A stretch of DNA of 14,502 nt from positions 1 through 14,502 of the IMG/VR virus record IMGVR_UViG_2667527959_000001, one strand, 5' to 3'. This document shows positions 8,228 to 10,765 of the stretch, one piece after another. The notes beneath the pieces were generated by a model that saw only the letters and a program-made list of their open reading frames with translations, searched no databases and had not been told where the DNA came from. Numbering within the stretch: position 1 is the first letter of the stretch; each line of letters opens with the position of its first letter. Source of the stretch: a virus. Its lineage: Duplodnaviria > Heunggongvirae > Uroviricota > Caudoviricetes. Made by a program: the position numbers and the translations under genes.

Positions 8228-9292
8228 ATGTCTCTTAACTGGATGCGCCATTTTGAGCTGCAACTGTTGGACCAGAACGGGCAGGGCGTTTCCCTGTCTG
8301 ACTTTAAGGTCACGTTCCAGATCGAGTGGGCAGACACACGCTGGCCGCGCGTGGCGAACGTGAAAATTTACAACCTTTCGACCGATACCACGAACAAGAT
8401 ACTTGGGCAGGAGTTTGCCAAAATTCGCATCATTGCCGGGTATGACGGTATAGCGCCGGATGTTGATGCGAGCCAGGTTGGTGTGTCCCGGGAGATTTCA
8501 CCAGACCAGATAGGGCAGGTGAACGGTCAGAACTACGGCCTGATTTTTGACGGTGATATTCGCTTCACCGTCACCGGGAAGGACAACATTACGGATTCCT
8601 GGGTGCTGATTCAGGCCATCAGTAACCACGAAGCGTTCCTCTACGCGACTACCATCACCACGCTTGCCGCTGGTTATACCGTTGCGGACCTGCACCGGGC
8701 GACTATGCAGGATTTCAACGCGTTCGGCGTGACGCAGGGCATTACCGGTGACTTTCCTGATACCGTGTTTCCTCGTGGCCGTGCGATTTATTCATCCACC
8801 CGTAACGTGATGGATAATATTGCTGCGCAGTGCAAAGCGACATGGCAACTGGTGGATGGTCAGGTCCAGATGGTGCCGGAGGATAAATATATTCACGAAG
8901 CCATTGTGTTGAATGCTGATACTGGCCTGATCGGTATGCCGCAACAGACTATGGGCGGCGGCGTAAACGTGCGGTGCCTGATAAACCCCAACATTCGCAT
9001 CAATGGTCTTATCCAGCTCGATCAGGCTTCGGTGTACCGCGCCACGCTCGGCAATAGCGAAATAGCACAGTCGCCCGGGCGTATCACCGAAACAGAAGAG
9101 AACGGCAACCGTGTGCTGACCGGCACGACGTCACAGGCTGCCAGCATTGCGACGGATGGCGTTTATATCGTCAAAGCTATCGACTATACTGGCGACACAA
9201 GAGGTCAGGCGTGGTACATGGATTTGATGTGTTTTGCGCGTGGCAGTCGTGATTTAGTTAATGCTGGTGCTATGCAAAAAACAAACTACTGA
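8228..9292 (+). CDS. Probable baseplate hub protein (gpD/gp27-like, tentative)
   Basis: 354 aa, preceded by AGGAG (8216-8220). Sits between TMP-proximal genes and the spike. The N-terminal F-x-L-x-L-x-x-x-x-G pattern is reminiscent of gpD-type tail proteins; from memory only. Confidence 0.5.
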   Translation: MSLNWMRHFELQLLDQNGQGVSLSDFKVTFQIEWADTRWPRVANVKIYNLSTDTTNKILGQEFAKIRIIAGYDGIAPDVDASQVGVSREISPDQIGQVNGQNYGLIFDGDIRFTVTGKDNITDSWVLIQAISNHEAFLYATTITTLAAGYTVADLHRATMQDFNAFGVTQGITGDFPDTVFPRGRAIYSSTRNVMDNIAAQCKATWQLVDGQVQMVPEDKYIHEAIVLNADTGLIGMPQQTMGGGVNVRCLINPNIRINGLIQLDQASVYRATLGNSEIAQSPGRITETEENGNRVLTGTTSQAASIATDGVYIVKAIDYTGDTRGQAWYMDLMCFARGSRDLVNAGAMQKTNY

Positions 9293-9302
9293 GGTACGGG
9301 AC

Positions 9303-9641
9303 GTGAAACTAGTAATTTTTACCATTGCAGCATTATTTTCTTTCCAGGCTATTGCTGATTCTCAGTGTGGTGATTTCAACATCCATTGGGCTGATGATGG
9401 TTTCGCTCGCGTAAACGGAGCTAAACCTGAATCGCAAAAAGTGACATTTCTTAAAAATGACGGTGATTATAACAACGTCAAAATTGAATGGCGCTTAGCG
9501 ACCAATCAACCAGGGCGATGGGTAGGAATGGAGTTTATTGGCCGTAATGGTAAAGCAATCCTGAATGCTCAGTGGCTGCAAGCAAATATGGATGCACCAC
9601 GTCAGTATGCAACTTATGACTGTGTAAAAATAAAAGGATAA
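9303..9641 (+). CDS. Small secreted protein of unknown function (cassette gene 1): cleavable signal peptide, ~94-aa mature Cys-containing protein
   Basis: GTG at 9303 is preceded by GAGGT (9291-9295) with 7-nt spacing. The N-terminus MKLVIFTIAALFSFQAIA / DSQC is a textbook Sec signal with an A-x-A cleavage site. The mature part has Cys near both ends. Local GC is about 40% versus about 52-55% in flanks (hand counts). The track's ATG 9261 start would overlap the hub gene and put 14 polar residues before the hydrophobic core. Confidence 0.7.
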   Translation: MKLVIFTIAALFSFQAIADSQCGDFNIHWADDGFARVNGAKPESQKVTFLKNDGDYNNVKIEWRLATNQPGRWVGMEFIGRNGKAILNAQWLQANMDAPRQYATYDCVKIKG

Positions 9642-9646
9642 AATTA

Positions 9647-9967
9647 ATGAAAGGATTTGTATCTCTTCTTTTTCTGCTATCCACCTCCGTTTGCGCTGGA
9701 ACGTTAAGTGATTTTTTTGTAAAACATCCAGATTTGGATAATAACCTTGCTATACACACCGCGATTTCTAAAGCTTCTGGCATGGAGGCTGCTGGATTTG
9801 CACGCAGAGAGGGTGGCAGCGAAAAAGAGCTGATGAGTAGTAAAGGTGATCAATTCGCAGTGCTCGGGTTTCGTCGAGTGAAAATGTATTGTAGCTATCC
9901 TGAATCAGCCCAAATGACTGGTCTAAGCGCTGAAGATTGTAAGCTTGTGCTTAGTAAGAACCTATAG
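9647..9967 (+). CDS. Small secreted protein of unknown function (cassette gene 2): signal peptide, ~89-aa mature protein
   Basis: ATG at 9647 is preceded by AAAGGA (9633-9638). N-terminus MKGFVSLLFLLSTSVCA / GTLSD: hydrophobic core with V-C-A cleavage site, non-canonical for a lipobox. Two Cys in the mature part. Low GC, about 38-40%. Followed 21 nt later by an intrinsic terminator. Confidence 0.7.
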   Translation: MKGFVSLLFLLSTSVCAGTLSDFFVKHPDLDNNLAIHTAISKASGMEAAGFARREGGSEKELMSSKGDQFAVLGFRRVKMYCSYPESAQMTGLSAEDCKLVLSKNL

Positions 9968-9988
9968 TTTCATTTCAAGTATGAATTT

Positions 9989-10014
9989 AACCCGCCACCG
10001 AGCGGGTTTTTTTA
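9989..10014 (+). terminator. Rho-independent terminator closing the cassette: stem ACCCGC / GCGGGT, 6-nt loop, then T7
   Basis: Sequence AACCCGCCACCGAGCGGGTTTTTTT read directly. GC-rich 5-6 bp stem plus a 7-T run, lying between cassette gene 2 and the spike gene start at 10025. Confidence 0.8.
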
Positions 10015-10024
10015 TGGGGTTTTT

Positions 10025-10765
10025 ATGCCAATTCCAACTCAATCACAGATCGGCGGTGAGCAGCAGACCGCGCAGGCCATTGCCGATTCGGTGTCTACCC
10101 AGATGCGCGTAGCGATGCCCGGCATCATTCAGTCGTTCGATCCTGAGACTGTTACCTGCACAGTAGAGGTGGCGCTACGCGGTATTGTTGGCGATGGATC
10201 CACCGAATTAAAACCGCTGGTGGATGTGCCGGTCATCTTCCCGCGCGGCGGCGGTTGCACGCTGACCTTTCCGGTAAAAGAAGGCGACGAGTGCCTCCTG
10301 ATTTTTGCTGACCGTTGCATCGATTTTTGGTGGCAGAGCGGCGGCGTTCAGGAGACCGTCGACCCGCGCCAGCATGACTTGTCTGATGCGTTCGCCATCG
10401 TTGGCCCGCAGTCGCAAGCACAGAAAATCAGCGGTATCAGTACCAGCGCCGCGCAGCTGCGAACCGATGATGGTGCGGCGTTCGTAGAAGTCGCCGCAGG
10501 ACATAACATCACCATTAAAACACCGGGCCAGCTTACAGCTACGGCTGAAGGTGGAACGACAATCACATCCCCGACTATCACGCTGAACGGCAACGTAACG
10601 ATTAACGGTAACCTGTCTCAGGGAATGGGAGAAAGCGGCGGTACTGCGACGATGCTTGGGCCGGTGACGGTAACGAATGACGTAACAGCTTCTGGTATCA
10701 GTGTCGCCACGCATAAACATGGCGGAGTACAGACTGGCGGGGGAACTACCGGAGGGCCGCAATAA
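10025..10765 (+). CDS. Baseplate central spike protein (gpV / Mu gp45-like)
   Basis: 246 aa. C-terminal half is Gly/Thr-rich with repeated beta-strand-like segments (ITIKTPGQLTATAEGGTTITSPTITLNGNVTINGNL) and a near-terminal H-K-H motif (10712-10720), as in the metal-binding tips of spike beta-helices. Located immediately upstream of the small baseplate protein and J-like gene. Confidence 0.7.
   Translation: MPIPTQSQIGGEQQTAQAIADSVSTQMRVAMPGIIQSFDPETVTCTVEVALRGIVGDGSTELKPLVDVPVIFPRGGGCTLTFPVKEGDECLLIFADRCIDFWWQSGGVQETVDPRQHDLSDAFAIVGPQSQAQKISGISTSAAQLRTDDGAAFVEVAAGHNITIKTPGQLTATAEGGTTITSPTITLNGNVTINGNLSQGMGESGGTATMLGPVTVTNDVTASGISVATHKHGGVQTGGGTTGGPQ

Follow-up and report, generated by a model that had tools for sequence, protein, structure and literature searches.

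Why would a strong intrinsic terminator stand directly in front of the central spike gene of a contractile tail, inside an operon whose downstream genes are essential for the virion? The question is raised by the 14,502-nt stretch of caudoviral DNA analysed here, referred to as the window. Its tail module encodes, all in the same direction, a tape measure protein with an SLT domain, a Dit-like protein, a plug, the hub, the spike, a wedge, baseplate J, a DUF2612 protein and a fibre. The initial annotation had offered three answers, namely that late transcription is antiterminated by a Q-like mechanism, that the terminator is leaky and tunes the dosage of the genes that follow, or that it mainly serves transcripts of a cassette inserted upstream.

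Anatomy of the terminator and of the spike translation start

The element is read on the coding strand in the order TATGAATTT, AACCCGC-CACCGA-GCGGGTT, TTTTT and ATGGGGTTTTT, after which the spike ATG follows (Table 1). The arms of the stem occupy positions 9989-9995 and 10002-10008, with the loop at 9996-10001, and the hairpin alone is predicted to fold with -10.6 kcal/mol. As ATGGGGTTTTT covers 10014-10024, the end of the T-run lies 11 nt before the ATG at 10025.

Table 1. Features of the hub-spike region, in positions of the window
Feature	Position	Strand	Description
Baseplate hub gene	8228..9292	+	phrog_196 baseplate hub, E 1.5e-83; left flank of the slot
ORF1	9303..9641	+	112 aa, secreted-looking, phrog_3443; probable GTG start at 9303
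Variable cargo segment	9636..9987	+	Delimited by homology breaks against close relatives; holds ORF2
ORF2	9647..9967	+	106-aa cargo protein, phrog_13007; signal-peptide-like N-terminus MKGFVSLLFLLSTSVCA
Terminator hairpin	9989..10008	+	7-bp stem AACCCGC/GCGGGTT (5 G-C and 2 A-U pairs), 6-nt loop CACCGA
T-run (U-tract)	10007..10013	+	7 T, the first two able to pair with A9989/A9990
GGGG, probable Shine-Dalgarno of the spike gene	10016..10019	+	5 nt before the ATG; putative function
Central spike gene	10025..10765	+	246 aa; Gp138-type N-terminal domain and GpV apex motif

The site is also listed by a consensus scan of the window. A loose terminator scan of the whole window yields 18 sites versus 14.5 expected by chance, which is no enrichment, and strict criteria were therefore applied, requiring 6 bp or more in the stem, no fewer than 4 G-C pairs and 6 or more residues in the T-run. 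Under these criteria, the site at 9989-10013 is the sole terminator on either strand of the 14.5-kb window, versus a mean of 0.04 strict sites per window in 300 dinucleotide shuffles. The stem-loop and T7 described upstream of the spike gene in the initial annotation are thus confirmed. The hairpin starts 21 nt past the stop codon of ORF2 (9967), on the same strand and in intergenic DNA, so that a terminating ribosome should not block its folding. The element combines a G+C-rich stem, a short loop, an adjoining T-run, an intergenic position on the coding strand and, among relatives, compensatory changes. Judged by these features, it is a real, functional-looking intrinsic (Rho-independent) terminator, at which transcription would be expected to end.

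A bidirectional terminator was considered and rejected, as the minus-strand tail, TTAAATTC, is not a U-tract and the site lacks convergent genes on that strand. Known RNA families were also sought with Rfam over positions 9100-10200, and the four matches (Trp leader, RyhB and others) were set aside, all being below threshold, ending at the terminator and driven by the hairpin. Elsewhere in the window, a hairpin without a T-run follows a capsid-like gene at 800-815.

The spike protein is recognized by its N-terminal domain (PF18352, E 9e-42) and its apex motif (PF18946, E 3.5e-8) in Pfam. The GGGG quartet had been proposed to double as the Shine-Dalgarno sequence of this gene, and this proposal fits the alignment of the junctions of 70 relatives, in which GGRG or GGAG is near-invariant at the same position. 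An additional ATG at 10014, out of frame with the spike, is not conserved among relatives.

The hub-spike interval as a slot for accessory genes

The stop codon of the hub gene and the ATG of the spike gene are 732 nt apart in the window. The interval forms an AT-rich island, with 37-45% GC over about 9200-10000 versus 51-60% GC in the flanks. It is tightly packed, ORF1 starting 10 nt past the hub stop and ORF2 5 nt past ORF1. The probable GTG start of ORF1 has GAGG 8 nt upstream, and the N-terminus that follows, MKLVIFTIAALFSFQAIA, resembles a signal peptide. In PHROGs, both proteins match families of unknown function only, whereas searches of Pfam, NCBIfam, PADLOC and PDB sequences returned no match for either of them.

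The two genes differ in their distribution. ORF1 is kept directly after the hub gene in about 65 related loci and, by this gene order, is a semi-backbone gene rather than variable cargo. Homology between the window and close relatives stops at 9628-9635, that is, at the end of ORF1. Given this break and the conservation of ORF1, the comparison identifies the segment holding ORF2 as the only variable cargo of the window.

Several features of morons are thus found here, as the genes stand between otherwise adjacent genes, their base composition deviates and a terminator follows them, this terminator being owned by the site and common to other cargos. A promoter belonging to the cargo was not found above chance in the window, where 13 promoter-like sites were counted versus 11.5 expected. 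The matches near the slot, at 9162-9190, 9441-9470 and 9616-9644, reach 9 of 12 consensus positions only and fall within chance expectation. With so little space between them and the hub gene, ORF1 and ORF2 could also just be transcribed with the late genes.

Conservation of the terminator at the hub-spike junction

Of 5,426 complete E. coli genomes searched by megablast, 54 contain the hub-spike region, which also turned up in a few phages. What stands between hub and spike varies among the annotated relatives and includes a reversed DUF4236 gene, a 54-aa ORF, a 181-aa ORF, or an STY1065-family gene accompanied by two others. In more distant relatives, the slot holds a set with a YafO toxin or, in one locus (L012), an Arc/Arc/P22AR-antirepressor set, and small secreted proteins are also among the cargo. 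In all the annotated relatives compared, a hairpin and a T-run are found at the same place before the ribosome-binding site of the spike gene, the stems varying as ACCCGCC[A/G]CCGAGCGGGT, AACCAGCTTCGGCTGGTT, GACCCGCTTCGGCGGGT and AACCCGTCACCCGACGGGTT. In some relatives, the last cargo gene is reversed, with a minus-strand terminator of its own, and even there the spike gene keeps the plus-strand terminator in front of it. Homology to the window resumes either at the base of the hairpin (9988/9989) or at its 3' arm (10001/10002), and upstream of 9988 the relatives sharing the hairpin show no sequence conservation. Since one hairpin is shared by loci with unrelated cargos and marks the point from which sequences are homologous again, the terminator, as judged from these comparisons, is a resident of the junction and the right-hand boundary of the mosaic unit, and is not carried by one cassette.

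The comparison was extended to 97 related loci across Enterobacterales. This sample includes 80 loci collected with a profile of the spike protein, using one genome per species of the Enterobacterales, with spike identities of 48-94%. The hub stop and the spike start were placed by tblastn, and the 70 nt preceding the spike ATG were scanned with a finder anchored on the T-run, which also catches hairpins whose purine-rich 5' flank extends the pairing into the T-run. Where hub and spike are separated by cargo of at least 600 nt, 63 of 65 loci carry a strict terminator. The two exceptions have variant hairpins, with an interrupted T-run in the antirepressor-bearing locus mentioned above and a long or bulged loop in the other (L094). 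Where the distance is about 360-417 nt, which accommodates ORF1 only, a strict terminator is present in two of six loci. Empty gaps of 30-90 nt are found in 14 loci, eight of them with a strict terminator. Another of these gaps (L059) also has a terminator, with a single C between the stem and the T-run. In five of the 14 empty gaps the hairpin is decayed or absent, decayed hairpins being found in L060 and L070. Finally, none of the eight loci in which the hub stop overlaps the spike start has a strict terminator. The difference between loci with cargo (63/65) and with an empty gap (8/14) is significant by Fisher's test (p = 2.5e-4), a value that is overstated as the loci are phylogenetically non-independent. 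The distance from the end of the T-run to the spike ATG is 9-19 nt throughout, in all families.

The initial annotation had also linked the terminator to transcripts of the cassette. This third answer is supported by the near-perfect association with cargo, in a refined form in which the terminator is resident at the junction, only ORF2 is variable and no cassette promoter stands out above chance in the window.

Covariation was assessed after aligning 70 distinct junction sequences with MAFFT. In the 7-bp helix, 96.5% of the cells are paired, and double-sided changes affect four of the seven pairs (18 cells). The observed values were not attained in any of 500 shuffles, and slid-partner controls are 34-63% paired, although the relatedness of the sequences means that this significance is overstated. 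The core stem occurs as CCCGC/GCGGG in 47 sequences, and also as CCTGC/GCAGG, CCAGC/GCTGG, GCCGC/GCGGC, CCCAC/GTGGG and CCCGT/ACGGG, whereas the columns of the T-run are invariant or nearly so. With compensatory changes in the stem and a near-invariant T-run, the alignment indicates that the hairpin and the U-tract are under selection as a structure, as a working terminator predicts.

Late regulation in full-length relatives

The late regulatory region lies outside the window, and full-length relatives were therefore examined, namely the prophage of NZ_CP107720.1 (L019; E. coli 2021CK-01361) and Citrobacter phage Omnitron. Strain 81, whose copy is 99% identical, was discarded as a genomic context because what it carries at the lambda attachment site is a truncated remnant of a prophage, devoid of a late regulator.

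The prophage of NZ_CP107720.1 covers 86% of the window at 96.8% identity and has a lambdoid organization, including an integrase, exo/bet/gam, a LexA-family repressor, replication genes, NinB/E/G and an 'antiterminator Q family protein' (PF06530, E 1.5e-21; phrog_943). From the Q gene onwards, holin-lysozyme-lysis genes, Rha, terminase, head and tail genes follow in one direction. The late strand carries four strict terminators. Two of them stand within about 190 nt after Q, in the position of tR' and between Q and the holin gene (25951-25928 and 25845-25829), and one lies past the lysis genes. The remaining one, AACCCGCCACCGAGCGGGTT-T7, precedes the spike gene and is identical to that of the window.

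Omnitron matches 88% of the window with 95.8% identity. A tblastn search for the Q protein of the E. coli prophage found no homologue in this phage. Its Q position, between RusA and the holin gene, is occupied by a 241-aa ORF matching phrog_753 'anti-termination protein Q-like' (E 1.4e-57). Thus, the two relatives have two types of Q, phrog_943/PF06530 versus phrog_753. In lambdoid phages, the late operon is turned on through antitermination by Q, of which several unrelated types are known (PMC2629481, PMC8022706).

The wider search for an antiterminator gene that the initial annotation had called for was thus positive in both of the closest full-length relatives. Together with their co-directional late operons, the Q genes lend support to the first of its three answers, as far as gene content can do so. 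The window itself holds neither a Q gene nor a late promoter, and a Q gene is predicted for the genome from which it comes on the strength of relatives that are 96-97% identical over the window. The simplest reading is that polymerase modified by a Q protein would read through the spike-proximal terminator, whereas unmodified polymerase would stop there.

Proposed function and alternative explanations

The explanation retained here, with a probability of about three in four, is that the junction carries a functional terminator that would insulate the spike, baseplate and fibre genes from transcription by polymerase not modified by Q, and that would be transparent to the late transcription complex. 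The setting would be that of lambdoid, contractile-tailed prophages of Enterobacterales, in which morons appear to be gained, lost and swapped immediately upstream of the terminator. In the lysogen, or with unmodified polymerase, transcripts arising from the slot or running into it, be it from cargo promoters or from spurious starts, would end at 10009-10013, and the spike, baseplate and fibre genes would thereby stay silent. Upon induction, a Q-type antiterminator would render polymerase from the late promoter resistant to terminators, and the modified enzyme would pass the spike-proximal site in the same way as the tR'-like terminators next to Q. The spike would then be translated from the Shine-Dalgarno sequence directly following the U-tract.

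In favour of this insulating role, the terminator is almost perfectly associated with slots that bear cargo, and the cargo of some relatives, such as the YafO toxin and the Arc/Arc/antirepressor set, is of a kind that is usually self-transcribed. Eight to nine cargo-free loci keep an intact terminator in a gap of 38-86 nt, so that insulation from cargo promoters would not be the whole story there. The terminators of empty slots may be scars or relics of cargo loss, a view with which the two decayed hairpins are consistent under relaxed selection, or they may have a role of their own.

An alternative that starts from such a role is that the terminator attenuates dosage, either by stopping part of the polymerases even when these are modified by Q, or in a late operon that would not be antiterminated. 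The messages for spike, baseplate and fibre would then be less abundant than those for head, sheath and tube. This alternative is judged quite unlikely. In contractile-tail baseplates, hub and spike are low-copy trimers, the hub being required in fewer copies than the wedge and fibre proteins. A reduction placed at this junction would thus separate two low-copy trimers and precede the genes of the higher-copy wedge and fibre proteins, which would mismatch the stoichiometry. Such a reduction also appears dispensable, given the eight hub-spike overlaps without a terminator and the five of 14 empty gaps with a decayed hairpin or none. Moreover, the Q gene and the tR'-like terminators of the relatives argue for processive antitermination. 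The cargo-free loci with an intact terminator do hint at a role independent of cargo. Partial termination is indeed among the roles proposed for intra-operon terminators (PMC8022706), and according to PMC2629481, citing Adams, Brown and Casjens 1985, the P22 ant moron may affect the level of tailspike through the frequency at which polymerase from PLate reads through it.

The hairpin may also be imagined as an RNA element that does not terminate. It would serve stability or processing, at the 3' end of the upstream message or the 5' end of a processed spike message, or it would keep the U-rich and Shine-Dalgarno region unstructured. The tight and conserved spacing between hairpin and Shine-Dalgarno sequence, with the T-run ending at a short distance from the ATG in every family, is compatible with this idea, and the T-run-less hairpin at 800-815 suggests that stabilizing hairpins may serve in the same operon. 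A stabilizing hairpin, however, needs no T-run, whereas here the T-run, the defining part of a terminator, is invariant or nearly so. Nor would such an element predict the link to cargo. The spacing itself is explicable by common descent of a unit made of terminator, ribosome-binding site and spike gene, with recombination boundaries upstream. This second alternative is therefore considered highly improbable. Finally, a regulated attenuator or riboswitch-like leader, in which an alternative upstream antiterminator structure would control the hairpin, is barely credible. The Trp leader match in Rfam (9913-10015; E 0.011) would speak for it, but its 25.6 bits stay below the gathering score of 41. 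In addition, no pairing that competes for the 5' arm appears in the predicted fold, and the relatives sharing the hairpin do not share the sequence upstream of 9988.

Relation to known systems

Among known systems, the nearest is the 'ant moron' of P22 and P22-like phages (immI: mnt, arc, ant, sar, sieA), which is flanked by genes 16 and 9 (Villafane et al. 2008, PMC2629481; phage L genome paper, PMC8022706). As in P22, a variable accessory region that evolves independently stands immediately 5' of the tail-spike gene, in a late operon antiterminated by a Q-type protein (gp23 in P22). Its content varies among syntenic relatives, and read-through into the spike gene would depend on the late polymerase, the Q of the window being deduced from its relatives. 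A slot filled with Arc, Arc and a P22AR-type antirepressor occurs in one relative only. In contrast with the podovirus P22 and its gp9 tailspike, the spike is here a Gp138/GpV-type central spike within an unrelated contractile-tail module, and the cargo of the window is a small secreted-looking protein instead of an immunity region. The arrangement is thus the classical layout of a moron and not a new mechanism. The window is a positional analogue of the P22 ant moron rather than a member of it, because its cargo is one 106-aa protein and not the mnt/arc/ant immunity region. In the literature searched, no account was found for P22 of a terminator that keeps its place 9-19 nt ahead of the spike ATG in different genera, empty slots included. 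The literature on the present group of phages (SEN34, yong1, Omnitron) yielded nothing relevant to the slot.

Lambdoid morons, as presented in PMC2629481 (Juhala et al. 2000 for HK97/HK022; Hendrix et al. 2000), are alike in their extra genes, their composition, the factor-independent terminator downstream and the late-operon setting. They differ in that the window shows no convincing promoter and in that the terminator, common to many unrelated cargos, belongs to the insertion site and so does not travel with each moron. The close relatives resemble the lambda Q and pR'-tR' system in having a gene of the Q family with terminators right behind it, and in the layout of their lysis, head and tail genes as one co-directional operon that contains internal terminators. 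The two relatives differ from each other in their type of Q, and the comparison is made here from sequence alone. Intra-operon terminators are known in lambdoid late operons, where their roles are stated to be unknown, and the proposals include the stopping of spurious transcription that is not antiterminated (PMC8022706). A conceptual parallel is offered by a terminator of Tn916, described in PMC11658703 as an insulator that blocks unscheduled expression of the element's genes and is overcome by antitermination upon activation. The parallel is conceptual only, as the element, the host range and the antitermination system are different.

Significance for lambdoid contractile-tailed prophages

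The strong stop before essential virion genes may thus be explained by textbook Q antitermination combined with the insulation of morons. What is modestly new is that a fixed junction of terminator, ribosome-binding site and spike gene marks a cargo hotspot across Enterobacterales, in widespread lambdoid contractile-tailed prophages. With a toxin, antirepressor sets and small secreted proteins among its cargo, this hotspot mirrors the P22 'ant moron' in an unrelated type of tail.

A more speculative extension, held to be unlikely but not far-fetched, is that the terminator came first, and that an old resident insulator made this site of the tail operon permissive for the capture of foreign genes. 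If so, any gene landing upstream would automatically be kept from driving the late genes in the lysogen, and the hairpin and T-run would be the recombination boundary for the exchange of cargo across genera. On this view, cargo-free loci with an intact terminator would be vacant landing pads rather than scars, and resident intra-operon terminators could predict where cargo hotspots lie in other phages. The junction may be used as an anchor for mining accessory genes of prophages, and it offers a simple natural test case for the read-through of a terminator by different types of Q.

Variable cargo between the hub and spike genes

The slot between the baseplate-hub and central-spike genes carries strongly differing cargo among the relatives L011, L012, L002 and L010, four of the 97 related hub-spike loci found across Enterobacterales. 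In one of them, the set formed by two Arc-family genes and a P22AR-type antirepressor resembles immI. Some cargo-free slots hold a form of the spike-proximal terminator hairpin lacking the T-run or part of the stem, as in L060 and L070, and this loss is consistent with relaxed selection where cargo is absent.

A motif of about 19 nt, CCTGAYATTTGATCAGTAA, which includes a GATC site, lies immediately 5' of the spike-proximal hairpin in some relatives. The loci carrying it belong to several genera and have differing cargo, and it partly occurs in empty slots too. This motif is not present in the window.

At the other end of the slot, the small gene ORF1 is kept immediately 3' of the hub gene in about two-thirds of the related loci (~65/97). 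Its start is probably the GTG at 9303; the mechanical ORF list instead places it at the ATG at 9261. The predicted product is a secreted-looking protein, encoded at a fixed place within the tail operon.

Features of the window and of related loci (L handles; coordinates within each locus)
Feature	Locus	Position	Remarks
Hairpin	Window	800-815	Between DUF2184 capsid-like gene stop (789) and following ATG (831)
DUF3383 gene	Window	3095-4255	
DUF3383 gene	L018 (E. coli strain 81)	15276-16766	
ORF1	Window	9303-9641	phrog_3443; signal-peptide-like N-terminus
Cargo	L011	2262-3252	YafO-family toxin and partner gene
Cargo	L012	1683-3234	Two Arc-family genes, P22AR-type antirepressor
Cargo	L002	1963-2253	DUF4236 gene in reverse orientation, followed by a minus-strand terminator of its own
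Cargo	L010	1595-2729	STY1065/STY2022-family gene and two further genes
GATC motif	L003	about 2495-2515	
GATC motif	L008, L013, L016, L031, L035, L050, L066, L085		
GATC motif, partial	L037, L039, L056		
Altered hairpin, cargo-free slot	L060	2971-3000	CTGCCCCAGCGGGCTCTGGAG
Altered hairpin, cargo-free slot	L070	2961-3000	GATCCCCGACGGATCGTTGGGAG
Post-spike gap	L005	3187-3414	
Post-spike gap	L006	3282-3509	
Related locus	L014		OM284015.1, 'Elizabethkingia phage EKP1'
Related locus	L095		CACSKA010000001.1, 'Chryseobacterium sp. 18061' contig

Other features of the head and tail genes

Downstream of the capsid-like gene, the window contains a perfect G+C hairpin, GGCCCCGAAAGGGGCC, without a T-run on the coding strand. 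Rather than a terminator, it may be an mRNA-stabilising element 3' of a highly expressed head gene. The DUF3383 gene probably encodes the tail sheath, its product being 386 aa long in the window and in NZ_CP107720.1 (E. coli 2021CK-01361), whereas the version of E. coli strain 81 has 496 aa. The prophage copy of strain 81 is a remnant located at the lambda attachment site, where it breaks off within the head-tail adaptor gene and is joined to cIII/kil/xis/int.

This enterobacterial-type tail module is also found under the labels Elizabethkingia phage EKP1 and Chryseobacterium sp. 18061. EKP1 shares an identical terminator hairpin with the window and ~76% nucleotide identity over the spike region, and the host or organism labels of both records look doubtful.

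In L005 and L006, both from E. coli, a gap of ~228 nt separates the spike gene from the next baseplate gene; at the same place in the window, the spike stop overlaps the start of the next baseplate gene (10765). This post-spike gap may represent another small site of insertion, in addition to the hub-spike slot.
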